A stretch of 64,000 bases of DNA, taken from positions 4,650,001 through 4,714,000 of the forward strand of contig OZ193910.1 in the NCBI GenBank assembly GCA_964276515.1. Reading direction: 5' to 3'. The first letter of the stretch is position 1; the number at the start of each line of letters is the position of its first letter. Both the position numbers and the translations under genes were made by a program. The notes beneath the pieces were generated by a model, which had not been told where the DNA came from, did not search any database, and saw nothing but the letters and a program-made list of their open reading frames with translations. Source of the stretch: Gordius albopunctatus. Taxonomy: Eukaryota. Below are positions 3,290-45,362 of this stretch, in pieces.

Positions 3290-6200
3290 ATGAGAAAAAG
3301 GGCATGTGTTATCGTTCTAGGTGAAATATCTCAAAGCCCTCGAATGGAATTCCATGCCTTATCATTTGCTGAAAATGGTTACGCAGTTGACATTATTGGC
3401 CATAATTGTAAGAAGCTTAATTGCTATATACACTGGTTTAGCAAATGTACCATATAAAAATATAACTACAAATAAAAATATAAAGATTAGACCCCTCAAA
3501 AAATTTCCTGTAAAATTCAAAGGTATTTATAATTCTATTATAGATTAATTTTAGTAGCTATTCTATTTCCTGTATATTTAATATTAAGAGTTATGTGGGA
3601 AATTGGCTTTCTTCTAAGAGCACTTAAAAGTGTATCTGCTCCTGATGTGATTATCATTCAGGTAGTTATTGCATATATAGCTATAAACTTCACATAGAAT
3701 CCTCCATCAATTTATATCATGCCAATAATATTATTGCTTCATTATTGTTTATGGAAAAACATGAAAATTATATTAGATTGGCACAATTATGGATACACTC
3801 TTCTATCTCTAAAATACTCACACTATTCATTAATTATAGGTTTGTATAAATAGTGAGTTAAAAATACTTTAATTGAATTTATCGTTTTTTTTTCTAATTA
3901 TGTCTTTGATTCTCAGTTTTGAGAGTCGAATTGGTAAATGGGTTGATTATAATATGTGTGTTTCAAATGCAATGAAGAGGGATTTAAAAAAGTGGAATAT
4001 TGAGTAATCAAATTTTTCTCAACGTGTTCTATATTTTATAGAGCTACAACTCTATATGATTTTCCTCAAAAGTTTTTTGCTCACTCAGATGGCATCAAAG
4101 AAAAGCATGATCTTTTGATCAAACTATTGTAAATTAATAGCTAAATTCCATAATAGTTTTATTATTTTAATTAAATGCTTTTAAAACCTAATGACTTTAC
4201 CTGTTTTTTTAGCAATATTGATACAAGAAACAAAAAGGAAAGTTTATTTACAGTTTATACTCCAGGTGACATTTCTCATTCTTGTCATTATAAGAAGGAT
4301 AGACCAGCACTAGTCATTAGTAGTACTAGTTGGACAGGTTGTCATTAGTGAAATTTAAACAATATAAGTTTTTCTTTATTTTGTTCAACTGATTCTATTT
4401 ACCACTATTCAAATCATATTAAATGTGTTATCTCTTTATTGATTACAATAGAAGATGAAGATTTTTCTTACCTTATAAATGCAATGGAGTTGTACGACAC
4501 TATGAAACAGGGAAATACTACTCTAGTTACTTATCCTGATATTCTTTGTGTTGTAACGGGCAAAGGTCCCCTCAAGGCATATTATGCAGATCTTATCAAA
4601 TCTAAACATTTCAAACATGTTGATTTTAGGTTGCTATGGTTGGAATCTGAAGATTATCCCAAATTGTTAGGTCAGTTATTTAAATATCACAATAATAAGG
4701 CAAAAGCTTTTCTAAATATTTTTCCAAACATACATTAACTTTTAGGTTTAAATTAAGTTGTGGTTAATTTTGAGTTTAATATAATTTGATTATTTAGGTA
4801 TAATTTTCATCTAACACATTTAAAGGTTCTCTTTAGATATTTAATTTTATGTTGGAATGATTGCCCTTTTATTATTACATGTGTATCTTTGGTGGATGTG
4901 GGCTACTGACTTTCAGAAGTATTAATGCCCGAATCAATTCAAAAAATGTCTGAGAATGCAACTAAATAGGGGAGGTTTAAAAGCACAGAATGGAATTTTC
5001 TATAACTCAGTTTTTAAAACCTAAAAAAACTCGTTAGAGGTTTTGTTAACAATTTAGATCATTTTCTGGGTTAGGCTTTGATAGTGTAATTAATAATACA
5101 TTTTTACTGAGATTTGCCTTAGTCAAAGACCTTTAGGTGTAACTTGCTTTATTACTTCCTCGTCAGCTTAGCCTTATTTATAGGGGGTTAGGTTTAAATT
5201 ATTTTGTTTAATACATAAGAATCTTAAAACTTAGGGCAACTACCTTCCATTGGCTATGCTCATGCCTGTCAACTAAAACATTTGTCAAACTTTAGAGTAA
5301 TATATCAAGAAATAAATTTTCATTCTAATGGAAAACTACACTTCTTGAAAATTTTTAGTATCTGAATAAAAAATGAATATTGTGAAATCCTTGTTTTAAT
5401 TTTTCATCACACTTTTTAGGATGTGCAGACTTGGGGATATGCTTGCATAATTCGTCTAGTGGATTCGATTTACCTATGAAGATATCGGATATGTTTGGGT
5501 GCAATTTACCCGTCATAGCGTACGATTATCCTACCCTGCATGAAATTGTTGAGCCTGGGCACAACGGCCTCCTATTTAAGGATAGCCGAGAACTGTACGA
5601 AAGGCTGAAGGTATGATGATTATACGCGAAGTTACAAAGCATTGAAATTTGGTTGACTAAACGTTGTTCTTTAAAATGTGAAAATTATTTAATTCGTAAC
5701 CCAAAATCTGGTTTAGGTTGGATTATAAAGTTTATGTGAGGCTTAAAAATGGACAAAAACACATTTTTAAAGTTCCTTTACACAACATTTTCATTTAAAG
5801 CTTTGCTGGTGACAACAAGTGTAGGGTTGCTTTTGTTTTTCAAAAAAATGGATTTGGAGAATTATAGGTAGTCACCCAAATATTTAGCGCGTGTGCCGCG
5901 AAATATATGAGATTAACTTTTTTAAATTAATGTGAAAAGATGAATTATATTTAAAAATGTCAATTGTTTTATATTAGTTTTATTGTTCAGTATATGAACC
6001 CGGCAAACGTTGTTTTGCCATTTACCCGGGTGTATTAAATTATGTTAGAATTTTAGGGCATACATGATGATAAAGCGGTTATTGAAGTAAAAATAAAGTT
6101 TAATAATTTTCAAACAAATAGTTAAAGAGGGTCCAAGGCCCAGGCCCACCCAAGAGATAAAACCTGGCCCCATGCCCCCCCCCCCCCCAAAGTGAAAAAT

Positions 6201-9200
6201 CTTTGGCCCCCTGGCCCTTCAACCATTTTTTTAAATATTTTTTTGTAATTAAGAAACAATATCATAATTATTTGTTTCTTAATAAAACTTTTAATTCTGA
6301 ACTTAATAATGTCCAAAGAACAGAAATATATGAACATTTATTGGCACTTTGTTAATTTTATTTTCATTTTTCTCCTTATTTAACGCGCAAAAAAGGACAA
6401 AATTAGATTTTTTAATTTATTTAGCCACGCAGGAGGGGACACGACAGTCCTATAATAATAATAATAATAAATGACCTGAAAAATAAGCAAAAAAATGACT
6501 TTGATTCATGGGCGTACCCCTCCCCCCCTAATTAAAAAAAATAATTTTTCAATACAAAAACCCTTAAAAATTATGTTTTGCCCCCCCCCTCTCCCTAATT
6601 AGCCAGGGAAGAGCAGAAAGGGCAGCTGTCCCCCCCCCCTAATTAGTCAGGGGAGGGCGGCTACCCCCTGCGGGTGTAGTCGAAAACCTTTTTTTTGCTC
6701 TCATAAAAATTTTTGGATAGGCGAGAAAATTTTTTTTTTTAAATCTGACCCCCCCCCCTGATTCAAAACCTGCTTATTATACAATAATACTATTATTTTA
6801 TTTTTCTAGTTAGCTCATTTATTTGAAATACAATTTTCTTTAATATAATATAATAATTAATTGAAGGATGGATAATTATTAAAAATATGCTTCCATGATC
6901 GACCACTTGATAATAATTTAAATATTATTTATTTATTTTAAATAGTTTGTTAAACCCCAATAATTTTGACCGTATACTGTAACATTTTTATTATACTTTT
7001 AAATATCTAATGCGAGAAAACTTCAGCCTTGTATGTATGACGTCATTATTGTATATGATGCTATAAATGAAACTGGCCGGTAAATGTGCGATATTTTTAA
7101 AACGAAAAGGTATTTTAGGAATCTAAAAAAGCTATTTTGCCCCTGGCATCCCTGGGCATCTACGGCTAAATTTTCGAGCGAATTGGGCCGGTAGTTTCAG
7201 AATTTAGCCCTTACATACATACACACACACATACATATATATATATAGATTACTTTATATATATAGATGGGCATACGCAGGAATACATAAAGGGAGGTTT
7301 TACTTTTTTTATTGTAAAAAGTTTTTGTAAAAGGCTTTCAATCAATAATTATTTTGTAATGTTTTTATAATATTAAAGATTTGATATAACAAGGCGATTT
7401 TTATAATATTTGGTGTTAAAATTAAAAATTTCTAGGTCCATAATAAATTGAAAATAAATACACTATAATATAAGGCTGAAACATTTGAACTCCTACACAA
7501 CGTCTACGAGAACATAAAATTATATATACTTTCGTGCAAAATAATATGGTCGACATTAAGAGAATTATGATGGAAAAACGAGTGCGAGATGTGAATATGA
7601 ATAAATACCAATAACGCGAAAAGGCGATATCTCGGTATTTTATTAAACATCAATATAATGCGGCGTATCAGCTTTGCGGCTATTGTTTGAGCATATTTAC
7701 TGCGAACGCGTTTATTAATCCCAACATATTATGCAAATTGATTTTGAGCGTTCCACTAAAAGCGCCACTGATAAATGCAATCTCGAATGCCTTCGTAAAA
7801 GGTATTAATTAATTTTCCAGGCTCATATTTTAGTTTAAGGATGCCTCTTCCATTATTCAAAGGCCCTGCTGAGGAGCATCCATAAGCTGGGGTTCAAAAA
7901 AGAATATATATCCGGGATCCACTAATGCGGAAAATGATACGAAGGGCTTCTGGGTTTCCTTTCTTACGCCAGCAAGATGTTGACCTTAAGCCGAGATCAT
8001 GCTGGGCTGACCCTATTGTCTCTCGGCATCCTAAATTGCCTGATTTTTTTGATGATATTTTGACTACTTGGATATGCCCTTCGGCTGTATTTCGTGGCAA
8101 AGATACGAGGCAATTGGTGCTAGGACTAATAACGACCCCGAGGGTTATCACATCTCTATTAAGTCCCTTATTTGGCAACCTAATTCCGATATGTACACCT
8201 ACATTTCCTTTTTAATCGAAAATAATTAAAAAGGTGAAATCGATCTGTTACAAATAATCAAGGCCAAATAGTATATTCTATTAGTAAACGTGTTCGGGCT
8301 TGTCTTAATATCAGATTTTAATATGCAGCAAAAATCGTCATATGTGTTTTAAAATAGCCGTGTCTTAATATCCGATTTACATCAGATTTCGATTTTAGAC
8401 ACATAAAGGCTTGTCTTAATATCGGATTCAGTTTCGAAACGCGCGATTTTTTTGGTCCATATATCCGATTCAAGCTCATGGTTCAAACTCGAATGTTATT
8501 ATTAATTTTACTTAAAAACAAGTAATAGAAAGAAAAAAAGCATAATTTATCAACGTCGTGATATATTTGAGGAATATAATCACCTTTTTGATGATATTAG
8601 TAGGAGTGAGCAGAACTTTTTTGAATACACCAGAATGTATCCTTCAACATTCTATTACTTATTAAGTCAAATCATTAAAGATATAAAGCATCATAAATGC
8701 AAAGTTATTGCCATACCTCCAGCAAAATGACTTATGGTAATCTTAAGGTAAAATAAATTTTAAACTAAAGAATTATAACAACTTTAGGTATTTAATCAAA
8801 GGTGAAAATTTCAGACAAATAGCCTATAGTTTCAGAATTTCAAGAAGTGCAATAACCTACATCATTGAAGAAGTTTTAGATGCCATAATAAAGTTAGGAT
8901 CAACTCACATTCCTGTGCCAACAGTGTCTGATTGGATTAGAGTAAAATTAATTCATTATATTAAAGTATTTCCATTTAGATATCTAAAGAGTTTAATGAA
9001 AGATGGAATTTTCCTCTTTGCTTAAGAGCTATAGATGGCAAGCACATCAGAATAAAGAAACCTGCTAGAGAAGGAAGTAGGTACTTTAACTATAAAGGAT
9101 ACCATTCTATTGTTTTGATGGCAATTACGGATGCAAAATATAAGTTCATTTATTTTGATGTTGGTGCATTGGTTCAAAGTGATGGGGGTGTTTGGAAGCA

Positions 9201-12200
9201 AACTTCTTTATACAAAAAAATTCAAGGGGATGATACATTTTTACCTTCTGGTGGATACTTTCCTGGTACCCAAGTTCAAGCCCCATACGTATTCATTGCA
9301 GATGAGGCTTTCCAGTTAAGTCACTTCTTGCTTAAACCCAATTCATATTCATCAAGAACATTAAATGACGAGAAAACTGTTTTCAATACAAGATTATCAA
9401 GAGCTAGAAACTGTGTACAATATTCCTTTGGCATACTAACTGCCAAATTTGACATATTTAATAAACCCATTAGGACCAGACCTCAAAAAGTGGAGAAGAT
9501 TGTATTAGGAGCATGCATCCTACACAATATACTTATTGATAGGGAGCAGATAGGTTAGACTCCTTTACAAGAAGCAACATCACTTTCAAACACTGACTTA
9601 TTGAATATGCCAAGCCAAGAAATTTTTATTCAAATTATTTTAATTTATTTTTATGATTTGAATAAAATTTATGTTGTCTACTTTTAAATAAAATTTTATT
9701 AACAATATTGGTTCATAGAATATACAAACACAAACATTAGATTGTAAATGGTATGTTGTTTTTATATCAAAAGACAATTTATTGTTGTTGAGCCATTATA
9801 TTAAGAGATTGCAAATCTGTCAAAATAGATCTAATAACCTACTATTAAAATACTAATTATAATATTTAATGAAAAATTATCTGGATTGAAACTATTTTTA
9901 ACCTTCTTAACAATTTCAAAATATTCCATCCTGGTGTCAATTTAATTATATGTCTCACATGCTTATTGTTAACATATACACAATTTTAGAAATTTTATTA
10001 ACAATATTAGTTCATGATATATATAATTACATTGTATGGGGTACACTATTTTTATAGCAAAAAACAATTTTCATGATAAATTCTTTACATTGCTGTTTGG
10101 CCATTACATCCAGGGATTGTAAATCTGGCAAAAGAGATTTAAAAAATAATAAATCTGGATCATCTTCTTTTGATGATTTAGCCTCTTCTATGTCAATCAG
10201 TCTATTAAGTTGATCAACAAACAGGGTTCTCCTTTTACAAGGTCTATTTTCTAATTTTAAAAATTTGAGAAGGGAGAGTCCCAATCGGGATATCCCCCTA
10301 ACTCTTGTTTTATTTATTAATATTTTCCTCATGTAAATATTATAAAAGCGATATATGAAAATCAATATATATATGGTGATCATTACGCGAGAAATTAACA
10401 CACCGACGAGGGGCAGAGGTTAAGTAAGCGCCGAGTGGGGAAACGATATAGAGTAAAAGAGGGGTGCTGAATTATAGTAAATTTCTTAGACTCTTTTACG
10501 GTATTCCAGTTTTGCAAACTAGTTGGTGTTCTGGTTGTGTGTTGAGTTCGAGCGTACCCAGTGGACCATGTTACCCAATTGGAAGTCGTCGAAAAAGCTT
10601 TCTCGGGAAGGTGCATCTGCTGGATTGTTGTCCGTTGAGACCCATTCTAGGTTTTGCTTGATCTTGATCATATTGTCCAGGCCCATTACCTCGCAAATCT
10701 TGGTGAACGCGTACTCTAGGTGCGGCGCATGTGCACTACCCTTTTTCATGATGTAAAAGGCGGTACGGGAATCCGTCAAGATCTTGGGGTTGAGGCTAGG
10801 TGTGTCGACAGCTGCTTTGATGAAGGCCAAAGGTATGGCAACCAGCTCGAGCAGGTTGATGGTGGGGATGAGGTCATGAACTGCGAAGATGGCAAGCGCA
10901 TCACTTTTGGCAATAGAGAGGACGGAGCCTCTGTAAAAAATACTAATATGTGAGAGTGACGCATCTCCCGCAGTGAATCCGTTGGTGTCGTAACGCATTC
11001 GGAAGGGTGTAGAGAGGTGCCGTTGTATCATGAGAATTTTTCGGACTGTCCACTCCGTCCGAAATTCGATGGGGTCTGAGGCTAGCAACATGTTGTAGGC
11101 TGGGGAAACGTATTTCGACCATCCGGTGAGCATGTAGACGTAGTGTGTCAGAATGCCCAAACACGTCTGAGTTACTAGTGGTTGTGGCTTGACCCCTTCC
11201 AACAGGAAGTGATTGAGGATTTGCACGGCTGCATCTATCTTTTTAACGAATTTGGCATTTACTTTGAGTGTACGAGATTCCAAGTCCACGTGGATACCGA
11301 GATAATCCATTTTAGTACGAGGAATCAAGCATGATTTGGCCTTGTTGATAGTCAGGTTCCAGCATTTGGCAAGGTATAAAAACCTTCTGGTATCAGCTAG
11401 TACCATCGTGGAAGAAGAACCATAGATGAGAATGTCATCCAAATATACATTGTATTTGGATTTTGTGATGGATTTCTTGCATAAGTCCAGCATTATTTGT
11501 TGGAGGACGAATGGGGAGAAGCTTGCTCCCATGGGCAGAACCTTGTAGGCATATTTCCTCCTTCTGTACCTAAACCCAAAGAATTTAGCAGCGTCTGGAG
11601 CCAATGGAATTGAGAAGAAGGCTGCTTTCATGTCGATTTTTGTCATGAATTTTGCCTCGGAGAGTGACGACGCAATGAGAGGAATGGATTTGAGAGAGAA
11701 GGGATATTTTACAAAGTTTTTGGAGATCTGGGATAAATCCGCAATGAGTCGAGGGGAACCATCGCTTTTCGGTATGAAATACATCGGAGATGGGATGGTG
11801 CCCGGGTTTTCCCTGACGATGTTGTATAAGATAATTTCATCCACAAGCGGTTTATGTTCCCGGGGGATAGCCTTGACATAGCGGGGGATGTGATAACGCC
11901 CATGATTGTCTACGATAGCCTTGCGAGAAAGTCTGGGCTTAAACCCAAACTTAGCCACTCGTAAAGTAAAAGGGCTTTGCCTCCAATGAGGTTTCAGAAT
12001 TGACGTACGAATAGAGAGTGGTTGATCGAAGTTGACGAATGAGGAGAGAGGATGAGTTGGAAAAAGGGGAATATTGGACGGTTCGCTAATGACAGGTGGG
12101 CCTTCGCCATCCAGACCCACCTCCGTCCATTGTGATGATAGAAGTCCCGGCACATTGGTATGCTCAGGTAGCGACGTGCTAAAAGGGTGTGGCAACTCTT

Positions 12201-15200
12201 CTAGCTCCGGGCCATCGTCGGGAGAGATGGAGTTGATAGCGATGCTCCTTGCAACGGCGGTATAATTTATAAGCCATGTTGGAGCATTTCCATCCCTCAC
12301 CGACCTCGGCGGGTTAACACCACTGCCGAGGGTCGCCGCTACCGTCCTAACATAGTTACGTTCTCTCCGCCCGAGGCGGAGGCGGCCCTTTGGGTTTAGG
12401 GCCTTTCTTCCTTTGACCATATCGTGTGTCAGGCGCACGAAAAAGCTGGACAGGTTCAGTATATTGGCCCATTCCCATCTTTTCCGCCCAATCCTTTGAT
12501 TTGCCGGTTACGGCTTGCCATCCATAGTAAGAAGCCATGGCCAGCGTCCTGACGCGGTCGGAAAATTTGTCAATTGTTTTATTGAAGTCCTCGATGGACT
12601 CACCCATGCTGAGCAAGAATTCCGCTTCATGCTTTTGGTAGGCAGGCATGGTGTAATTGGATTCAATAGCTTCACGCAACCCCTTGAGTCGAAGCTTTAG
12701 GATTTCGATATTGGAGGTTGGTATATTACTGGGCCTAGATCTTTCTCTTGCCAGGAGATTGTCCAGCTCGGCACGTGTCATTGTGACCGTGTCTGCGGCC
12801 GGGCTGGGGGTCCAGTGTGGCGGATTGTCTACCGCCGCGATCGTTTCCTCGCTCCTTCCCACGAGGTTCCTATCGATCTTGGCATCCATTGCCGCTAACC
12901 GATCCAGAATCACCTTCACTACTGATTCCGATCCTAAGGTGTCACGGCTAATGGTCGCACCTGTCGAGGATTTGTCGGGGGACGTCATGGAAGGGTTTAG
13001 TAATGACGAATTAATATTACTAAGGGAGGTGGATTTTGAAAAGTATTTATTAAGAGGGGTTGTATCGGCAACGTTCTTTTTAGACGAGGTTTTCCTTGTC
13101 ATAAAAAAGGGTGGACAGGGGTAAAAATTTATAAATTAACACACTGACGAGGGGCAGAGGTTAAGTAAGCGCCGAGTGGGGAAACGATATAGAGTAAAAG
13201 AGGGGTGCTGAATTATAGTAAATTTCTTAGACTCTTTTACGGTATTCCTATCAATAAGTATATTGTGTAGGATGCATGCTCCTAATACAATCTTCTCCAC
13301 TTTTTGAGGTCTGGTCCTAATGGGTTTATTAAATATGTCAAATTTGGCACTTAGTATGCCAAAGGAATATTGTACACAGTTTCTAGCTCTTGATAATCTT
13401 GTATTGAAAACAGTTTTCTCGTCATTTAATGTTCTTGATGAATATGAATAGGGTTTAAGCAAGAAGTGACTTAACTGGAAAGCCTCATCTGCAATGAATA
13501 CGTATGGGGCTTGAACTTGGGTACCAGGAAAGTATCCACCAGAAGGTAAAAATGTATCATCCCCTTGAATTTTTTTGTATAAAGAAGTTTGCTTCCAAAC
13601 ACCCCCATCACTTTGAACCAATGCACCAACATCAAAATAAATGAACTTATATTTTGCATCCGTAATTGCCATCAAAACAATAGAATGGTATCCTTTATAG
13701 TTAAAGTACCTACTTCCTTCTCTAGCAGGTTTCTTTATTCTGATGTGCTTGCCATCTATAGCTCTTAAGCAAAGAGGAAAATTCCATCTTTCATTAAACT
13801 CTTTAGATATCTAAATGGAAATACTTTAATATAATGAATTAATTTTACTCTAATCCAATCAGACACTGTTGGCACAGGAATGTGAGTTGATCCTAACTTT
13901 ATTATGGCATCTAAAACTTCTTCAATGATGTAGGTTATTGCACTTCTTGAAATTCTGAAACTATAGGCTATTTGTCTGAAATTTTCACCTTTGATTAAAT
14001 ACCTAAAGTTGTTATAATTCTTTAGTTTAAAATTTATTTTACCTTAAGATTACCATAAGTCTTTTTGCTGGAGGTATGGCAATAACTTTGCATTTATGAT
14101 GCTTTATATCTTTAATGATTTGACTTAATAAGTAATAGAATGTTGAAGGATACATTCTGGTGTATTCAAAAAAGTTCTGCTCACTCCTACCAATATCATC
14201 AAAAAGGTGATTATATTCCTCAAATATATCACGACGTTGATAAATTATGCTTTTTTTCTTTCTATTACTTGTTTTTAATAAACGGCTGAGTAAAATTAAT
14301 AATAACATTCGAGTTTGAACCATGAGCTTGAATCGGATATATGGACCAAAAAAATCGCGCGTTTCGAATCTGAATCCGATATTAAGACAAGCCTTTATGT
14401 GTCTAAAATCGAAATCTGATGTAAATCGGATATTAAGACACGGCTATTTTAAAACACATATGACGATTTTTGCTGCATATTAAAATCTGATATTAAGACA
14501 AGCCCGAACACGTTTACTAATAGAATATACTATTTGGCCTTGATTATTTGTAACAGATCGATTTCACCTTTTTAATTATTTTCGATTAAAAAGGAAATGT
14601 AGGTGTACATATCGGAATTAGGTTGCCAAATAAGGGACTTAATAGAGATGTGATAACCCTCTGGGTCGTTATTAGTCCTAGCACCAATTGCCTCGTATCT
14701 TTGCCACGAAATACAGCCGAAGGGCATATCCAACTTTATATTAAAGGGCGAAAGGTACAAAGAGTAGCCACTACTATACAATGGAGGAAACTAAAGGATA
14801 ATATTCAACATTTTAAGGAATAGGTAATTAAACATGCTGAATTTAAGGAAAATACTTCGTGTGAGGATCAATGGAATGGTATAGCTGCCACAATGCCACT
14901 AGAAGAATTCTCAAGGAGACGTGGTGGTGGAATGAAGAACTACAAAAATGTATTAAGGAAAAGAAGAGATTGTACAAAGTTTGGTATAAAAGCAAGGATA
15001 GTAATGATAAGCAATCTTACCAAGTAGCTAAAATATCGGCTAAAAAATCCGTATCAAAAGCTAAAAACAAGGTGTACGACGAAGGAGAAAGATTTATCTA
15101 CAGTCAAAAGGGAGAAATACTAACACACGTCAGCCATATACTACAAAGATGGTACGACTATTATAGCGATTTATCAATTGAAAAGGAGCCTGTAATCGAA

Positions 15201-18200
15201 GACACTAACCAGGAAAACACAATAGGAGAATTAAACACAGCTGACTGCATCACGGAAACGGAAGTCAAAGTTGCTATGGGTAAACTAAAGTCAGGAAAAG
15301 CCCTTGGACCCGACAATATACCAATAGAGGGCTTCAAAGCGTTAGGCAATACTGGTGCACAATTCCTCGCCAACCTTTTCTACAATATCTTGAAAACGGG
15401 TAAAATGCCTAACGAGTGGAGGGATAGCTACATGATCCCGATATACAAGATGAAAGGGGACATTCAGGATTGCAACAATTACAGAGGGATAAAGCTTATG
15501 AGTCACACTTTCAAGGTGTGGGAAAAAGTGATCGAAAAACAGCTTCAGAGTTTGCTTCAAATTCGAGATAACCAATTCGGATTTATGCCGGAGAGGTCTA
15601 CAGCAGACGCCCTGAACAGTGTTAGAAGATTAATGGAACGGTTTAAAGAATGGGAAGGGGATTTGCACATGTGTTTCATCGATCTAGAAAAAGGGTTCGA
15701 TAAAGTTCCTCGTAATTTAGTTTGGAAATGTCTTGAAAAAAAACAATGTGCCACAAGTATACGTCAGAGCAATCAAAGATATGTACAAGGGAAATAGAAC
15801 GTACGTTAGAACAACGGTGGGGACTACAAAGGGCTTTGCCATTAATACTGGAGTCCATCAAGGTTCAGCTCTTAGTCCCTTCCTATTCATAATGATAATG
15901 GATAATATTACCAAGGACTTGGGCGAGGAAGCTCCTTGGGCAATGATCTTTGCAGACGATATAATCTTCTGTGCCAAAAGTGAACAAGAATTGGCTAATA
16001 CTGTAAATAGATGGGTAAATGCAATAGAAGAAAGTGGTCTCAAGGTAAATCGAAAGAAAACAGATTGCATGAAGACAAAGTTTAAATCGGATGAAAACCA
16101 GCAAAGTGCATCCCTTACTTTAGGCGATTAGCAACTTACAAACGTGGATTCCTTCAAATATTTAGGATCAACGCTTCAATCGAATGGTGGAATGGATAAA
16201 GAAATCCAAGCAAGGATAAATTCTGGATGGCTCAAGTGGAGGGACTTGACAGGTGTTCGTTCTGTGCGACAAAAACATCCCGAGAAGACTAAAAGGTGCA
16301 CTATAAATCCATCATACAGCCAACAGTCCTGTATAGCTCGGAATCATGGACTATACGTAAGAGAGAAGAGCAACGTCTTGCGGCCATGGAGATGAGAATG
16401 CTAAGATGGGTGCTAGGAGTAAACAAAAAGGACCATAGGCGAAATGAAGAAATAAGAAGAATTTTGGGTACTACATCAATTGCGACAAAGCTCCTAACAA
16501 ATAGACTAAGATGGTATGGCCATGTCGAAAGAAGGGACGATAGGTACGTAGGAAAGAAAATCGAGTTGATAAATTTCGCAGGAAAACGAAGGAGAAGAAG
16601 ACCCAAGCTTACCTGAATTCATAAAATACGGCATGATATGAAAGTCCACAAGATAAAGAAAGAGGTGACAAGCAGTCATAGAAAGAAGAAGAAGAAGATT
16701 TATTTTTTGTTATGGAATTATAGAAATAAATTCAAAAAAGTGTATTAATTATAGGTTACCAATTTTAAAAAATTTAAAAACACCGTGAATTTTCGGGCTT
16801 ACGTGCGTGAATCAAAATATTGCCTTTCGTGAGCGGGCGGGTCTGGTCAAAAAATTTTTAGTGGTAAGCGTGAGTGGGCGTGAATTTTTTTTAATACCAC
16901 CGTGAGTGAGCGGGCCGTGAATAAAAAATTAGGCCCGCGCCCACCTCTAATGGTAACCCTCAAGCAATAGCTCATATCACTGCGACATTAAATACGGAAA
17001 TTTGGCAGAGGAGCTTATCCAAGTAGTCAAAATATAATCCCTAAAAACACGCAATTTGATGCTGGTAAAGAATATTACCACCCAAGCATGATCTCCAGAC
17101 CATATAAACATCATGCAAACGTAGGAATGGAAACCCAGAAGCCCTTCGAATTATCTTGCGCATTCGCAGATCCCGGATATATTCTTTCTTAAATCCCAAC
17201 ATGCCGATTATTCTCAGAAGGGCCTTTAAATAATGAAACAGGCAACCTTAATTAATACCTTTTACGATGGCCTTCGGCAAGTATTTTTCAATCGCGCTTT
17301 TAGCCGGCCGCTCAAAATCAATTTGCACAAATCTAATTTAAACCCAAACATACTGCTGTATGCTCCACGCCTCCCATTATGCATGAAGACATACACTACA
17401 GGGATCATGTGTTCCTTATAATAGGCCTGGATTGTGTAGAGCTAAAATGTAAAAATTCAAATTCACTTGGTAAAATACCATCCATGTATTGTACATTACG
17501 TCACATAAAACCTTTAAAAGGGAAGGCGTCCCAAAAATTAGAATGTTGTTGTTTTCGTTCCATAAGAGGAACCTTTTTTTATGTGTTGATGTTTGTGCTT
17601 CGGTCAACCGTATATCACTCCTTGGCTCGCCTACTAGGCTTGGCCATTTCCTTTGTCAACCTCACAGCCTTCAGGAGTGGAGTTGCCTGTGGAAACTCAC
17701 CCTAGCAGGGTTGCCTACAACCGCTTCCTTTAACTTCATCTTTGAAAAGCGCATCGTAGTCCTCCCTCGGCGGTTTATGGTTATGCCGATGCTTGACAAC
17801 GACATTTCCATTAACTTCTGAGGGAATCTTATTCATAAAGTCAATCATCCACAACCTCAATGACTGTAACAAACTAGACAGAAAACTAAAAACTATAATT
17901 TAAATGGCAAAATTGTAATATATTAAAAATTACTAAATATAAAGCTGTTAATAAAAATTGCATAGCAATTAAAAATAAATAACATATGCATAGGCTTTTA
18001 ATTTATATTCATTTGCACATAAACTAATGAATTCTTATAGAGAAGAGTAAGGTGCACAGACCTTTTATAATGTAATACACACCACGCTTACGTATTTTAA
18101 ATGATAAACCATATGCTATTATCTTTACTTAGGTCAAAATTCTTGTTAATTGCCTTTTAATTTTATCTTTGCTACTTATTTCCGTAAATCTTACTTTGAA

Positions 18201-21200
18201 ACTCGTCCCACATTAACTTCTTTTTCTAACCACCCCAGACTGAGGCCAGACTACGATTTTGCCTTCCAATATTCTGTTTATATTTAAGTTTTCGGACCCC
18301 GGCCAGAGGCTAAAATCTATTCTAATATTTGTGCCCGCAGCTTTTGACCATTGGGTACCTTCCCATCAAAAAATAATGACTGCTCCACTACCAAATATCC
18401 ACCATTTTGTTCTTTTTTTGAGTCTGACTTGATAATACTGGTCAACAAATAGTTGTTTGTGTTGTTGTTTATCTACTCTACTACTACTATTACTAAAACA
18501 ACAACACGCACTTAATTCCTAGTGTTGAAGAGAAGGGAGGGCGCACTCAAGTCTGGTATAATTTGTCAATGTAAAAGATAGGGATAATTAATTTTGTATA
18601 TAATTTAAAAAGTAAAAGTGCTACGATAAAAAAATTGTAAATACATTCCTCTCCCCTATATCTACGTATTAAATCGATTAAATAAAATTTTTACCGACTA
18701 ATTTGCAAGTTATTGCCGTTTGAAAAACGCTAAACCGCGTTTTTTGCAACTTTGACAGCAAATATTTAAAAAATTGACTTATAGGTAAAAAATAAAAACA
18801 TATTTGTGTTCACTGTAAAAAACTCTACCTGTTGAACCGTGTTATTAGACTTTTTTTTGTCAATTTTGTTGGTTTGGGTGTCTTACCTTTAGGTTAGAAA
18901 CGTATATGTTTCTCTGACCCATTGCCCACCCACTTTCTCCCCCTTATAGGCCTGCACGGGTCACCCGAACGGGATTTATAGAGTTGGGTCAAAGGATGTG
19001 AATTTCTGCGTGGGCCGAAATTTCAGGGTTAGGCCCGGCCCATACCCGCACAAATATATTTTTTTACCCATACCCGCCCCGCAAAAAAACAACAAAAAAT
19101 GCGCCGCATCAGGCCCGCACGAGAAAAAAGCTTCAGTGTTTTCAAAAAAATTTATTTGTATAGAAAAAAATTTTGATGTATGAAAAAAAATTTTATAGCA
19201 TATAAAAACGATATTAATAAAAAAAATTATAATTCAATATTGTGATTTAAAAATAATAAACTGTCTATTCTATCAGGTAGTAGTGTTGTTCTTCTTTGTT
19301 CTATTAGGCGACTTGCCTTACTAAACGTGCGTTCACTTGTAGCGCTTGTGGCTGGAATTGCCAAAAACTGTACAGCTAACTTGTCAAATTAGGTAGGATA
19401 AGTTCGTGTTCTTTCCACCATGAAATAACATCAAGCTCATCATCTTCCGGTTTAAGATTTAATTTAACATAAGTATCAACTTCATTGCTCTCCTCAATCT
19501 GCTCTCTTTCATCGTCCCCCCAAACGGAGATATATATATCGACTTTTCACCAATAGCTAATTGCCTACATACCTTAGCTGAATTGCTCATAGATCGACGA
19601 CTGATGCAAGAAGAGCTAGGATCTTCTTGCATTAATTTATTTAAAGTTTGTGTTACCATGGTTTTAACAAGAATTTTTTCATCCTCAGGTAACATTTTGA
19701 GGGTGCGGAATTTTGGAGCAAGAAATGTTGATATCTTATGATATACATCAATTTCGAACTTTGAGGTCAGCATAGTTTTAGCCCTGGTTTTTAATTTATA
19801 AATTTCTAATGGAGGCGTATTTGGTATGGCTTTTAAAGATGTATAATAGGGTAAAACTTTATACAATGTTGGCTTCAATGAAATACTTGAACGAATTTTA
19901 AGCAATCTAAGAAATTTTAAATATAAGATTTTTTTAAACTTTTAAAAAAATAAATTTTAGTAATTACCTTTTCTATTCCATCGGAATTATCTACTTTTGG
20001 AGATTCCATTTAATCAAATATATTCAAAGCTAGAGCTAAGTAATTATTATATAATATGTAATAATAATTTACTTTATTAAAACTATTGCAAGCTAATTAG
20101 CAATGTTGATATTATAAGTTTGTAATAAGTAGGAGAAGTGTAGCTAAAACTAATTAATTATAAAATAAAATTTTTTAATGAATAAAGCTTAAAACAACTT
20201 CAATGAGATCTTGGAACAAATATTAAGCAATCTAAGAATTTGAAAAGCGAGGGAAATAATAAACAATGAATTAAATTAATTTACTTAATTAGCGAAAAAT
20301 ATAATATTAAATTTTCCCTCAAAATAATACTGTTTAAATAGCAAATTTTTGTTAGAAAAAATAAATTTTTTATCATCAAGATAATAAATGAATTTTGTTT
20401 TGTCAATACTATAATGATAGTATAGAGTTTAATATATTTAAATTTTTTCACTTATCAAAGCCCAAGCCCGGTCCGCACTTTTTTTTAGTGCTCATTTTCA
20501 GGTCCGGCCCAGCCCGCGGGCCGGCCCGGCCCCTGCAGACCTCTAATGTGAATCCTACATTACAACATGAGCTAAACGTATTTGTTAAATTAATGCTATT
20601 ATCTATAATTTTTGTAAAACAATATCGAATTGTATAACTAATTATAATCGTTCATTCGTATAAATAATCAATTTCTTTTTCTATTTTTTTAATTCGTTTA
20701 ATTTGGAGGGAAATTTAAATTTAAAGCTGAATCACCACGAAAGGTAAAATATTAACAAATTCGTATTTATTATTGTTTATAGTCTATAGAGTAAATTATA
20801 AATTTAACTAATAAAGATATAATTAAATATTAACAAATGATTTTTATTATTTTTTAAAAACGCTTTCGGGTCGGGTCGGGTTCGTGTTGAAAAAAGTGAT
20901 TTTGCAGGTCTCAACTCCCCCTTCCTTTGCCCCTTTCAGTATAAATAAGAAATTAATGATAGACCGCTAAATAAAGCTAAAACTTTTTAACCTCTACACA
21001 GTTCACAAGAAAATTAATAATAAATTTTTTGGGGGTCACTAGTGTCCCTTCATCCGAAATATTCGCTTCATTATTAGCAATAAAATCGCGAATCATAATC
21101 AAAAGATATCAGTATAGCGCGAAGTATCAGAATATAAAACGTGTAAAGTGTTAATCTGAGCATTTTCATGCGAACGCATTTATTAATAGAATATAAAGAC

Positions 21201-32163: not shown

Positions 32164-35100
32164 TAGCTAATACAACCTGGGCTAACTGATAAATCTTGGG
32201 ATGTTCATGTTTATTTTTCTCCCAAAATTCTAATACGTTCTCATCTAGTACAATTCTATTTTGATCTAAGAACAATGTCATGAGAGAACCTATACTTTTT
32301 CCTGCACTTTTAACATTTTCCATATTAATAGTTTTACTTTGTTCTTTCATTCTTAAAAGCTTCTCAAGCTTATCCGTTTTATCAGGCAATGATAATTGTA
32401 TTTTATCACTAGAATCCTTACAGCCATTCTTTAATACCTCAACTTCCGCCAAATATTTAGTAAATGTATTTATTCAATTCACAATATATTTTTGAATTAA
32501 AAACCCGAACCCGGGTTTTACCCGGTTCGGGTTCAGGGGTTCGGGACAAACCCCTGGTCGTGCTTAGTATACCCCAAGCTCCACCGTATCATTCTCATCT
32601 CTGTGCCTTGTAATAGCTTTAATTCCGTGATTTTTAATGCCCTTGTTTCACTTCCATAGAGTAACACCATCTTACGATGGATTTGTAAGCTTTGCTCTTA
32701 AACCATATTGGCATTTTCTTGTCGCACATTACACCGGATATACTTCGCCGTTTAGGCCATTCTTTTTGGATCCAGGTATTGACTTCTGTTGCGCAACCTC
32801 CCTCTTGATGTGACATCGAGCCGAGGTATGTGAACCTGTCTACTTTTGGGTACTTTAGATGGTTATCCATCGATGGGGTGCCTGTACCGTTCATTTCCAT
32901 GTATACCGTTTTTCTATCGTTGACCTTTAAACCATATCCAGCTAAGCGTTTTGACCATTTTTCGGCTTCTTCGAATACTTTCTCCCTTGTTTCCTCGCAT
33001 AGTATTATATCATCGGCATATAGCATACACCATGGCGAAGGCTTTTGAACGTTCCTCGTTGTCGTGTCTATAATTATATTAAATAAAAAGGGACTTAAAG
33101 CAGAGCCTTGATGTAATCCAATATAAACCCGAAAAGGTCTAGAGTCTCCAACTGTCCTCCTAACGCAAGAGTTTGAAGCTTCATAAATATTTTTGCATGA
33201 GCCATATATATGCGTCAGGGATATTTTCATATTAAATCGCGGGGGAGGGTGTCATAAGCTTTCTCAAAGTCGATGAAAACCATATGTAGGTCTTTCCTCT
33301 TTTCACCATACTCATCCATGATTTGTCTTAGGGCGAAGATTGGGTTGATTGTGGATTTGCCAGCCACGAATCCGAATTGATTCGCCGATATTTCCACCTC
33401 GTTTTTCAGCCTTGTTACTAAGATCCTTTCCACAAGCTTCAAGGAGTGGCAAGTAAGCTTGATACCTCTGTAATTGCCGCAGTCCTGAGGGTCTCCTTTG
33501 CCTTTAAATAAGGGTATAATCGTGCTGTCCGCTCTTCTAGGAGGTTCGTCATGGTGGTGACTCCTTCTTCACGACATCCGAGCAATGCTTCCATAGGTAT
33601 TCCATCTGGGCCATTTGCTTTTCCTTTTTGCATCTAGTTCATTTGTGTCCTAACTTCATCCTCCTGAAAGAGTTCGACCATACTTATATTTGGCTCAATT
33701 TCGGAAAGGGAATCCTTGTCATTTGCAATATTAATAAGTTTCTTAAAATATCGTTTCCACCTTTATCATCACTTCTTTCGGCTTGCATAAGGTTTGACCC
33801 TTCTCGCTTTTGATTATTTTAAGAACTCCGACATCGCGAATTCTCTTCTCCCTTATCTTGGCCAATTTGTACATAAGCCTATCGCCCCCCTTTATGATCC
33901 AGTTTGTTTGCCATCTCGGTGTACGCGGAATTCTTCGCTTTTGCAACGGCCTTTTTGCGGCCCTCTTTGCGTACCTGTACTCTTGATAATCCTCCGACTT
34001 TTTTTGATTTATGCTACCGTCTATCTATATAGATTTTTCTTTCTTTCAATGAAATCTTTAACCGATTGATCCCACCACCATAGTTCCCTATTGATAGCTT
34101 TGCCTCCTTTGGTCTGTCCTAAAACACGGATCGCTGTTTCGTTAATGTCCTTAGATAGCGTCTCCCAATCGTCTTCTACGTCCCTTTGCAACTTCCTTGC
34201 ACCCAAAAGTGAGGAGGCTTTTTGATGATATTCTTTGTTCGTGGACGTATCCTTTAGCCTTTCGTATCGAATTCGAGAATTCGAGGTTCATAGACCTTTC
34301 TTCTTTCGGGAAATACTCTTCTGCCAAGATCCATAACAAGGCGACGATGTTGCCTGCCGATTTCTTCTCCCGGTATTACTTTGCAATTCTTGATACTCCA
34401 TAAGTCCTTTCGCCGTATAAGCAAATAGTCGATTTGACTAAAATTCTTCCCACTTCTATAGGTCACAATATGATCTTCGCGCTTTTGAAAATAGGTGTTA
34501 ACGATCGCCATGTCATATGGTTGGGATACTTAGAGAAGTTTTTCCCCTTCTTTGTTCTTCAGACCATGCCCATAGCCTCCATAATTACGTTCATACCCGA
34601 GGCAATCTTTCCCAAGGTGAGCGTTGAAATCTGCCCCAATAATTAGCCTTTATTCCTGTCCTATTCCTTGTATTTCCTTTTCCAATCGAAGAATATGTCT
34701 TTCTCTGATTCCAAACATCTAATTTGGGAACATACGCGCACATAACGGTTAGGAGGCCCCCTTGATCTGCAATCTTCACCCACATTAGCCTGTCGGAACA
34801 ACGCTTGACTTCCACCACCTTGTCTTTGAACGATTTGCTTAGAACGATACCGACCCCGTTTCTACGATTTGGTGACCCACTGTAGAAAAGCTTGTATCCT
34901 TCTCCTAATTCCCGAGCTTTTGTTCCGTTCCACCTCGTCTCTTGTAGGCAGGCGATGTGTACCTTTCTTCTTTTTAGCTTCTGTGCGACCTCGTTGCTCT
35001 TCCTCGCCAACGTTCCCACATTCCAGCACGTAATTCGAACCTTTTCACAACTAGTTTCCTTATCCGCCTTCGTTGTGAGTTATTCAGTAACTCTAGTGTA

Positions 35101-38129: not shown

Positions 38130-39238
38130 TAGAGGTCTGCATGGGCCGAAATTTCAGCGTCAGGCCCGGCCCATACCCGCACAAATATATATTTTTTTAC
38201 CCATACCCGCCCCGCAAAATGACAACAAAAAATGCGCTGCATCAGGCCCGCACGAGAAAAAAGCTTCAATGTTTTCAAAAAAATTTATTTATATAGAAAT
38301 AATTTTGCATGTATGAAAAAATTGTTATAGCATATAAAAACGATATTAATAAAAAAAATTATAATTCAATATTGTCATTTAGAAATAATAAACTGTCTAT
38401 TCTATCAGGTAGTAGTCTCTTACTAAACGTGCGTTCACTTGTAGCGCTTGTGGCTGGAATTGCCAAAAACTGTACAGCTAACTTTGTCAAATTAGGTAGG
38501 ATAAGGCCGTGTTCTTTCCACCATGAAATAATATCAAGCTCATCATCTATCGGTTTAAGATTTAATTTAAAATAAGTATCAAATTCATTGCTCTCCTCAA
38601 TCTGCTCTCTTTCATCGTCCTCCCAAACGGAGATATCCATATCGACTTCACCAATAGCTAATTGCCTACATACCTGAGCTGAATTGCTCATAGATGGACG
38701 ACTGATGCAAGAAGAGCTAGAATCTTCTTGCATTAATTTATTTAAAGTTTGTGTTACCATGGTTTTAACAAGAATAGCAATGTTGATATTATAAGTTTGT
38801 AATAAGAAGGAGAAGTGTAGCTAAAACTAATTAATTATAAAATAAAATTTTTTAATGAATTACCTTAAAGCTTAAAACAACGTCAATGAGATCTTGGAAC
38901 AAATATTAAGCAATCTAAGAATTTGAAAAGCGAGGGAAAAAATAAACAATGAAGTTAAAAACAAACACTACCTTCTATCCATTCAATTAATTTACTTAAT
39001 TAATGAAAAATATAATATTAAATTTTCCCTCAAAATAATACTGTTCAAATGGCAAATTTTTGTTAGAAAAAATAAATTTTTTATCATCAAGATAATAAAT
39101 GCATTTTTTTGTGTCAATACTATATTGATAGTATAGAGTTTAATATATTTAAATTTTTTCACTTATCAAAGCCCAAGCCTGGCCCGCACTTTTTTTAGTG
39201 CTCGATTTCAGGTCCGGCCCGGCCCCTGCAGACCTCTA
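38130..39238 (-). mobile_element. Non-autonomous hAT element
   Basis: TIR TAGAGGTCTGCA / TGCAGACCTCTA; perfect TSD CTGTGGAT; ISWWKEH...[15 protein letters not shown]. Confidence 0.92.
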
Positions 39239-43985: not shown

Positions 43986-45362
43986 TCAGGGTACCTTTTT
44001 AGTCGGCGAAATATGTAAAGTAGCCAGTACATCATAGAATTCTAAGTTGTCGTTGTGAGGGCATCGTTCAAACATATGCAACCTGCTTACTATAACTCTC
44101 TTCATTGCTTGAATATTACAAAGGCTAAATTGGTATTCTTGTAAACCTCTGAACCGTATTGATGTAAAAGCTGACATCAGCGATGGTTTTATACCAAGGC
44201 TAAAACAATTTATATCTTCCTCGTGATCGGCCCCAAAACTGTGACCAACCTCGTGGGCCAATGTGTTAACGGCAAGTGGAAGACTTCTGAAGTTTCCCGG
44301 CAAGAAAGTGTAATCGAAAAAATTAACAAATGCCATATTTGCATTCTTAATAAAGTTTGATGGTCTCAGGTAAGATATGTCGTTCGCAAATATACCAGCA
44401 TATGTGTACATGTCCGAGCTGGCCATCCATGCCTGGCCTGTGACTTGCCGTAAATTCTGGTATGTAAATGACACTGCCAAGCAGTATTCGTTACCATAAT
44501 TCTTTTGGGAGATTTTTTCTAAATAATGTCCTTTGTTGTACTCTACGTCTTGGCTTGAAAAGACGTCTCTCATATCAGAATGGCTCCAATCCATGTAAAG
44601 AGTGATCTTCGATACCCTAAATCCCACGTGATCTATGAGGCCGTCGTCGGTGAAGTCCATTGACCTATAAATAAAGTCCAATGCACCAGCGATTAAGACT
44701 GTATTATGCAAGGCTAGGGCCACACTACCTCGCGCCACATTTTCCATAAACGAAACATCTACGATTATGTGCAGGCCACATACTTTCTTACTACCCGGCT
44801 CGAAATGATTCAAACGCTGCCTCAATAACAAGGGGTCCGAACTGGCATTAGTAAATTTATTCAATTTTTCTAACCAACCTTGATCAGGTTGCCAGGGATC
44901 TTTTCTATGAAAAACGATGGCATCTTGTCTTAGCACAGACATAGATTGTCGACCCATAATTTCATCTAGGCCAAAATTTGTGGTCCTATAAGGATCAAAG
45001 GGATTATTGACATCAACATAATGTATGACCTCTTTGATGTAGATAAATCCTTCAAAATAAGGATGGGAATAGCGACCAAAGAAAAATGAATTATTTTGAC
45101 CGAATATAACTCCAACATAATATGTGTGATCCAGCATGTTGTTAAGAGAACGTACTATGGGTCTAAGCGTGTTGTGCGAGTCAAAAATATTTAACATTGT
45201 AGAATGATCGATTACATCGGAACGGGTTTTAAGATGCAGATTAAATGGCAAATTTGTTGGTTTAATATAAGGATTGTCTATATTATATTTGCGTCTGGAG
45301 CAATAGTTCATGTAAGCATTGAAACAATTAGCAAAGAGATATAAAATTGAAAGCCCTATCAT
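43986..45362 (-). CDS. Intronless secreted ADAM10/kuzbanian-like zinc metalloprotease (signal peptide, prodomain and catalytic domain only)
   Basis: Hydrophobic N-terminus from ATG 45362; prodomain-like FEGFIY; YCLAVSFTY, GQAWMA, AHEVGHSFGADH zinc motif, Met-turn SLMS, FSLCN. Confidence 0.88.
   Translation of the reverse strand: MIGLSILYLFANCFNAYMNYCSRRKYNIDNPYIKPTNLPFNLHLKTRSDVIDHSTMLNIFDSHNTLRPIVRSLNNMLDHTYYVGVIFGQNNSFFFGRYSHPYFEGFIYIKEVIHYVDVNNPFDPYRTTNFGLDEIMGRQSMSVLRQDAIVFHRKDPWQPDQGWLEKLNKFTNASSDPLLLRQRLNHFEPGSKKVCGLHIIVDVSFMENVARGSVALALHNTVLIAGALDFIYRSMDFTDDGLIDHVGFRVSKITLYMDWSHSDMRDVFSSQDVEYNKGHYLEKISQKNYGNEYCLAVSFTYQNLRQVTGQAWMASSDMYTYAGIFANDISYLRPSNFIKNANMAFVNFFDYTFLPGNFRSLPLAVNTLAHEVGHSFGADHEEDINCFSLGIKPSLMSAFTSIRFRGLQEYQFSLCNIQAMKRVIVSRLHMFERCPHNDNLEFYDVLATLHISPTKKVP

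Follow-up and report, generated by a model that had tools for sequence, protein, structure and literature searches.

In tyrosine-recombinase retrotransposons of the DIRS and Ngaro type, a first open reading frame (ORF1) overlaps a frame for reverse transcriptase (RT) together with RNase H, there is neither a protease nor a tRNA primer site, and an encoded tyrosine recombinase is the hallmark of the DIRS order. PAT, Ngaro and VIPER elements have split repeats of the form A1...B1-A2-B2. In VIPER and TATE, the RT-RNase H frame ends past a hepadnavirus-like RNase H, and one copy of a direct repeat forms the 5′ end while the other lies close to the 3′ end; SIRE elements, which are short, share the VIPER 3′ end (PMC6681497). 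On the side of the viruses stand the Blubervirales, with genomes of ~3 kb and no integrase, and HEART, a group of invertebrate retroelements near hepadnaviruses whose mobilisation is given as unresolved in PMC12440569. Here, we analyze an element from a horsehair worm that resembles each of these systems in part and in which no integration enzyme was detected. It lies in a 64,000-nt stretch of the Gordius albopunctatus genome (assembly GCA_964276515.1, contig OZ193910.1, positions 4,650,001 to 4,714,000 of the forward strand), referred to below as the window.

The element spans window positions 10267-13248 (~3 kb), lies entirely on the minus strand and reads, 5′ to 3′, repeat A1, 30-nt leader, ORF1, pol, 11 nt, repeat A2 and a 125-nt tail. 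Both frames are intact; pol lies in the +1 frame relative to ORF1, with which it shares 65 nt, and the GC content of the two is 48-50% vs. 33% for the window. This layout, and the near identity of the two repeats (1 of 116 bases unlike, 2741 nt from start to start), had been described in an earlier sequence-only reading of the window and were confirmed; the protein motifs quoted there are all present. The parts of the element are as follows (window coordinates, strand):

13133-13248, minus: repeat A1 (5′ copy, 116 nt), joined to the flank via a 2-nt GG microhomology; likely a promoter or leader
13103-13132, minus: 30-nt leader before the ORF1 ATG; other copies vary here, with a T-run and then a C-run kept
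12356-13102, minus: ORF1, 248 aa, predicted helical, without cysteine, with a basic, proline-rich C-terminal tail (9 K/R among the final 30 aa)
10519-12420, minus: pol, 633 aa, RT and RNase H
11287-11775, minus: RT core, Pfam RVT_1, pol aa 216-378 (E 1.6e-22)
10585-10983, minus: RNase H, pol aa ~480-612, with D486, E525, D550 and D602 and the motif NPADAPSR
10392-10507, minus: repeat A2 (subterminal copy), beginning 11 nt past the pol stop
10267-10391, minus: tail, 125 nt, closing in a hairpin
10316-10391, minus: AT-rich tail spacer, variable between copies (low summed depth; a contig joint from 10315 to 10453)
10267-10315, minus: conserved 3′ terminus, with AATAAA at 10314-10309 and then a hairpin at 10304-10267

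The pol protein begins with ~135 proline-rich residues, followed by the RT (YLDD at 326-329), a thumb/connection region and the RNase H, in which all four carboxylates align with every reference group. It ends only 20 aa past the RNase H, with no methyltransferase or recombinase. ORF1 is gag-like by position only and its likely role is RNA packaging; it had no match to one DIRS ORF1-pol protein and no usable match in the Atlas search. A search of 1.84 billion proteins gave a single match for it, a repeat protein of 5271 aa that aligned to the serine-rich N-terminus and was dismissed as compositional, and the AlphaFold models were unusable (pLDDT 39.6 for ORF1 and 39.4 for the other). At the RNA level, the 3′ arm of the terminal hairpin closes on the final base of the element, with 6/200 and 7/200 shuffled sequences folding equally well in two runs. 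Rfam gave one match, judged to be chance, and a hammerhead-like CTGACGA...GAAAC on the plus strand of repeat A was set aside: its G is altered in other copies and A2 has another base.

A six-frame Pfam scan of 7001-17500 revealed no recombinase, protease or endonuclease family, and RVT_1 was the only match within the element; the others in this interval were a Harbinger transposase in each arm of the flanking duplication described below, a BESS motif and a non-LTR RT (LTR, long terminal repeat). The coding strand of the element has no spare ORF of at least 150 aa, in agreement with the sequence-only reading, which had seen no room for a tyrosine recombinase, DDE integrase, endonuclease or protease. 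None of the hallmarks of LTR retrotransposons is present: read from the sequence, the A repeats have no TG...CA ends, primer site or purine tract, and protease, DDE integrase and target duplication are likewise lacking. The A copies are direct, the longest exact inverted match within the element is 13 nt and internal, and the element thus has no inverted terminal repeats; nor, A apart, does it contain any perfect direct repeat of at least 11 nt. Sequence of the tail end is present at a single place in the window, leaving no B1-type split repeat.

Set against the DIRS- and Ngaro-type retrotransposons, the element has the same overlap of ORF1 with the RT-RNase H frame and the same lack of protease and tRNA primer site, but no recombinase, methyltransferase, inverted terminal repeats, internal complementary region or B1. 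The hallmark of the DIRS order is therefore missing, and A1 and A2 are all that correspond to the split repeats of PAT, Ngaro and VIPER. With VIPER and TATE it shares the end of pol just past the RNase H and the placement of its direct repeats; unlike them, it has no recombinase frame between ORF1 and pol and no B1, and it has YLDD where the two sequences that we take from their motifs to be VIPER-like (P0101 and P0104, the only two long ones) have IDN. Compared by eye with tick HEART sequences in a PMC12691608 supplement, it has similar D.S, TK.D..AF and PF.+Q motifs, while the seven tick rows there show [YH][IL]DN and PFG.RP vs. YLDD and PMGASFSP in the element. The family could overlap with HEART1/HEART2 or with insect HEART members, the comparison covering motifs of the tick rows. 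One match relevant to HEART came up, within a 38-kb contig.

Close relatives of pol were few. A single-sequence search gave nothing above 35% identity (78 matches, 7995 candidates), only distant DIRS and gypsy proteins, and residues 380-633 alone matched 0 of 803 candidates. A profile built from pol, Toolik virus and four hepadnaviral P proteins recovered three proteins of Gordionus sp. (XP_065317776.1, XP_065315139.1 and XP_065315196.1; P0082-P0084), annotated as uncharacterized, 37-39% identical to pol across 93-96% of RT-RNase H (34 matches, 7627 candidates, restricted to lengths of 235-790). They resemble the element in the RT core (47-51% identity), in having RVT_1 as their only Pfam family and in carrying nothing past RT-RNase H, with no methyltransferase tail. 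On these sequence comparisons, the three horsehair worm proteins are the sole close relatives found. No related locus turned up when viral contigs, metagenomes and prokaryote genomes were scanned; of four metagenome motif matches, two were unrelated and one was Toolik virus. The Atlas search listed euglenozoan clusters at 0.96 (~540-aa proteins) and hepadnaviral P at 0.93, which serve as leads only.

Three other sequences came up in the course of these searches. A 3313-nt Logan contig (P0081) encodes a 584-aa polymerase with terminal protein (TP), RT and RNase H that groups with Toolik virus (98/99) and is probably another proto-nackednavirus. A protist transcript (P0003, 889 aa) encodes protease, RT and RNase H, with an NPAD motif and no integrase in the ORF; its RT is 33% identical to that of the element and its place, on a long branch, is unstable. 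A 1141-aa ORF on a very AT-rich metagenome contig (L019:167-3592), with endonuclease-like and RT motifs (PMG, YMDD), is probably a protist non-LTR element.

To place the lineage we built trees from 40 of 54 collected sequences, the other 14 (near-duplicates or short sequences from gypsy, hepadnavirus, DIRS and unlabelled groups) having been dropped beforehand; group labels were assigned from domain content and motifs, and HEART, PAT and nackednaviruses lie outside the sampling. Under LG+C20, the joint tree of both domains unites the element with the Gordionus proteins in a long-stemmed clade (100/100) within an unresolved node that also holds the VIPER-like sequences, Blubervirales and DIRS plus Ngaro (88/89), the whole node being apart from gypsy at 98/93. 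A sister grouping with the VIPER-like sequences received 42/84 in this tree, and Ngaro formed a clade without the element (100/100). With RT alone, the element stood weakly beside Blubervirales, together with a protist sequence, under LG+G4 (64/94), and with the VIPER-like sequences under C20 (79/45; four sequences left out); in the latter tree it fell within neither DIRS (98/96) nor Ngaro (100/98). The sequence-only reading had named nesting of the RT inside a known DIRS clade as evidence for a deleted PAT/Ngaro derivative, and no such nesting was seen in the sampled DIRS and Ngaro clades. Approximately unbiased (AU) tests, picked after the first tree had been seen, rejected a single clade with the 11 DIRS-type sequences (p 0.012) and, marginally, one with Ngaro (p 0.047).

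The two domains gave different nearest groups: the RT core scored best against the DIRS profile (193, vs. 162 for gypsy, 158 for Ngaro and 123 for Blubervirales) and the RNase H best against Blubervirales (79, vs. 70 for VIPER-like and 63 for DIRS). The element and its Gordionus relatives appear, from sequence, as a deep branch of their own among DIRS transposons and hepatitis-B-like viruses. This bears out the proposal of a little-described lineage, intermediate between DIRS and hepadnaviruses, that has no integration enzyme. Literature searches, which covered sources outside Repbase and subscription journals and for most hits the listing alone, turned up no account of such a recombinase-less family or of the Gordionus elements. 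The lineage is apparently an undescribed deep branch of RT-RNase H retroelements lacking an integration enzyme.

The RNase H result raises the question of a viral origin, namely an endogenised non-enveloped reverse-transcribing virus related to the proto-nackednaviruses and integrated by accident. The RNase H trees place the element as sister to Blubervirales (94/80 under LG+G4; 78/80 under C20, four sequences left out), the AU test does not reject this grouping (p 0.43), and the size of ~3 kb and the hepadnaviral P in the Atlas list are in keeping with a virus, as would be insertion at a break; the element also has the absence of an integrase and the NPADxPSR motif in common with Blubervirales. 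The Blubervirales clade itself (100/100) excludes the element; the sister position was recovered in 3 of 5 trees, with bootstrap below 95 in all, and is compatible with the AU test, although the long branches on both sides may attract each other. The NPADAPSR motif, which had been likened to hepadnavirus P, is indeed present, but NPADxPSR also occurs in the two VIPER-like and in 1 of 7 gypsy sequences. Against a virus, a profile of six hepadnaviral TPs scored its controls at 57.8 and 42.1 bits and the element at ≤0 in all frames, and a profile of 11 cores, proteins marked by conserved helices 4b/5, found the Toolik core (25.8 bits) and gave no match to ORF1. The resemblance to the core/P layout of nackedna- and hepadnaviruses that had been suggested is not upheld by these profiles. 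There is no DR1/DR2 pair, epsilon or circular permutation, repeat A folds no better than shuffles (z -0.8), the RT has YLDD and not YMDD, and the 3′ terminus is fixed across copies (see below), unlike random integration of circles. Different sequences follow A1 and A2, and the element is therefore not a circle read with terminal redundancy. We conclude that the element is not a hepadnavirus, and consider an endogenised virus, which the sequence-only reading had entertained, very unlikely.

We then asked whether the window copy represents a family, using public contigs from two runs (X1 and X2) of the same organism and study; no RNA data set was among the sources found to contain the element. 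Contigs aligned at 85-100% identity, with single-piece depths of up to 5477-6918 (X1) and 844-969 (X2), several times the single-copy depth, and we estimate that the genome holds ten or more copies. Subfamilies ~10-13% apart retain the reading frame, one diverged piece of 744 nt having 76 differences and no gap. Variants were scored in 40 of 681 entries from one data set and 40 of 63 from the other: 14 of the 23 pol variants listed were synonymous (vs. 19% expected, p 1e-5), with no stops, as were 5 of the 6 listed in ORF1. The family is under purifying selection.

The contigs also define the 3′ part of the family. The pol-A2 junction is present in diverged copies (piece 10476-10565, 8 differences, depth 6918 vs. 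~500-620 for single copy), as is the link from A2 to the tail, so that the absence of space for a recombinase behind pol characterizes the family. Of six bins over A, five had a summed depth of 27-33k and one of 17k, vs. 8-19k over the adjoining end of pol, about the twofold excess expected from two repeats per element. Loose 3′ ends of other copies lie before 10260, 10266 and 10270, in AT-rich flanks that agree at only 0.52-0.67, indicating a common 3′ terminus, and one contig piece has 11 differences and 5 gaps in the tail spacer. The last 50 nt (10267-10315) are several times deeper than the body and run on into different AT-rich sequence behind 10315, which argues that other elements share this end; its owner may be a more abundant family or short passengers. 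The multiple copies, synonymous changes, fixed 3′ end and common pol-A junction together indicate a family and not a one-off deletion. Collecting copies, as the sequence-only reading had suggested, thus settled the 3′ terminus and the recombinase-free pol-A2 junction of diverged copies; no 5′ end of another copy was seen.

Some contig features stand apart from these results. Summed X1 depth reached 80-88k at 12039-12572, vs. 8-24k elsewhere in the ORFs, and two contigs skip 67 nt there (12132 to 12200); the end of ORF1 and the N-terminus of pol may be copy-variable or common to other elements. Joints inside pol (11126 / 12311 and 11169 / 11423), one to the opposite strand and one skipping 253 nt, show rearranged copies elsewhere in the genome. 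Joints from 13105/13106 to 10391/10392 resembled circles and are variant forms of the 26-nt leader that had aligned beside the other of the two repeats, and a loose end behind 10504, considered as a flank, is a variant of the pol-A2 spacer.

The insertion site of the window copy is not simple; its flanks form an inverted duplication absent from the sequence-only reading (8068-9543 vs. 14733-13247; 98.9% identity, with 6 mismatches and one 11-nt gap in 1487):

8068-9543, plus: left arm of the inverted duplication, flank DNA and the left part of a Harbinger (DDE_Tnp_4), outside the retroelement
9544-10266, plus: middle of the Harbinger, single copy; here the BESS gene's C-terminal part is cut away at the 3′ end of the element
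13247-14733, minus: right arm of the inverted duplication, beginning exactly at the 5′ end of the element

The 3′ end of the element interrupts the BESS gene at 10266, with AAA opposite TTT at the joint; the 5′ end meets the inverted copy of 8068-9543 via GG, and the right arm stops at a 5′-truncated non-LTR RT element at 14733. The flanks are non-contiguous and there is no target duplication at this copy. An error-free unitig of run X2 begins exactly at 8068 with a depth of 229, vs. 133 and 117 in single-copy neighbours, and the duplication is therefore real and no assembly error. A composite Harbinger transposon is a less likely source, as the duplication extends ~230 nt past the apparent Harbinger end (placed near 8296) and has no target duplication. 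The Harbinger transposase frame of the right arm (13810-13136, minus) stays open through A1 and resumes into ORF1 after one stop, probably by chance.

As the 5′ boundary coincides with a rearrangement breakpoint, the window copy could be what is left of a longer element, with a gene for a recombinase or nuclease that lay upstream of A1 and was lost in the rearrangement, or a deleted PAT-like derivative. The trees contain no PAT-like references, which leaves room for the latter. A 16-residue stretch of ORF1 may resemble a motif of PAT/Ngaro ORF1 proteins. Against this explanation, only 1% of the contig material aligned to 7500-15500 continues into unlike sequence, and the diverged subfamilies keep their frame, as noted above. 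A recombinase upstream of gag is mentioned for none of the four groups described in the accessible parts of PMC6681497 and PMC7192593, and the motifs K[FL][ED]D, FTK and DDG, present in two PAT-like rows of PMC12691608, are by eye missing from the RT. We regard a remnant as unlikely.

The explanation that we favor, with a probability of roughly 45%, is that this is an intact copy of a multicopy RT-RNase H family which has no detectable integration enzyme and makes no cut of its own on insertion, a chromosomal 3′ end left free by a break or stalled fork being extended instead. By analogy to non-LTR elements, reverse transcription anchored at the 3′ end of the RNA would be suggested by a terminus that is fixed and structured and that more abundant sequences share. 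In this scheme, a transcript would begin in A1 and extend to the tail; RT would bind the 3′ hairpin and copy the RNA from its fixed end, with a host strand ending in T as primer on the terminal A's. RNase H would then clear the RNA, a template switch between the A repeats would restore the 5′ repeat, and the cDNA end would join host DNA by microhomology, here yielding the inverted duplication. A layout analogy is provided by Drosophila TART, in which 5′ sequence is repeated subterminally at the 3′ end and followed by a unique tail, and whose 5′ end has been suggested to be rebuilt through a template jump (PMC1636488); unlike the element, TART is a non-LTR retrotransposon with an endonuclease domain and an unrelated RT. 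At the window copy, a rightward-growing strand ending in TTT at 10266 would have been extended with cDNA, the end of which then switched via the GG microhomology to the opposite template at 9543. At this one site, the flank pattern fits fork or break repair, for which no element-encoded nuclease would be needed. One contig, at single-copy depth (131), joins A plus a few spacer-like bases to the tail end (10504 to 10256), as expected of a 5′ end copied from A2.

The main rival is a recombinase-less branch of the tyrosine-recombinase retrotransposons that produces cDNA of its own, forms a head-to-tail circle and takes its recombinase from a sibling family sharing its 3′ terminus, or from a Crypton. 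The RT core scores best against DIRS, the A...A-B arrangement equals the VIPER/PAT/Ngaro form minus B1 (PMC6681497), the terminal 50 nt are common to a more abundant sequence, one contig carries a tail-to-A junction, and the nearest Atlas clusters are proteins of euglenozoans, the host group of VIPER and TATE. However, crossover by a recombinase should leave contiguous flanks and those of the window copy are inverted; B1 is absent, with 11 nt alone between pol and A2, diverged copies included; and the tail-to-A junction is at single-copy depth. An automated survey, which weighs little, lists DIRS in 0 of 4 nematomorph genomes in the available part of bioRxiv 2024.06.11.598342. A borrowed recombinase is in our view possible.

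Several points weigh against insertion at a break or fork by a nuclease-free family. Only one complete insertion site is at hand, its rearrangement could postdate insertion, and no listed contig spans either junction of the window copy. A circle junction would explain the head-to-tail contig (10504 to 10256) just as well. Among the 12 loose ends listed, of 92, there is no flank at the 5′ end of A, and extra sequence upstream of A1 in other copies is possible; the stretch 12233-12472 (the ORF1-pol overlap, site of the recombinase in VIPER) is covered by no listed piece from a diverged copy. Both runs represent one organism and one study, and summed contig depth is no copy number.

Elsewhere in the window, a single open frame of 478 codons (43986-45422, minus), apparently intronless, encodes a reprolysin-type (M12B) metalloprotease (Pfam E 1e-11). 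There are two decayed non-LTR RT elements (14734-16700, plus, and 32600-35100, minus), which we take to be RTE-like from their motifs; the first begins exactly where the inverted arm ends. Two copies of a DNA transposon fragment, 88-90% alike, lie at 19005-20515 and 38136-39225 and are presumably hAT-like, judging by a motif.

A more far-reaching reading, which we hold as tentative and rather doubtful, is that the family is an autonomous, recently active class that consists of ORF1 and RT-RNase H only, would insert from a fixed 3′ hairpin with no nuclease or recombinase, and would be a living non-viral sister of the hepadnavirus order. With a copy that is intact and young, a defined 3′ end, a family under purifying selection and an annotated chromosome-level genome that contains relatives, it becomes possible to test by what route a member of the DIRS/hepadnavirus group with RT-RNase H spreads in the absence of an integration enzyme, and which non-viral lineage sits closest to the hepadnavirus order. 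If insertion at breaks or forks is true, the element would also cause rearrangements, as at the window copy; if the non-viral sister relationship is true, it would provide a model of the hepadnavirus ancestor as it was prior to the gain of terminal protein and core.

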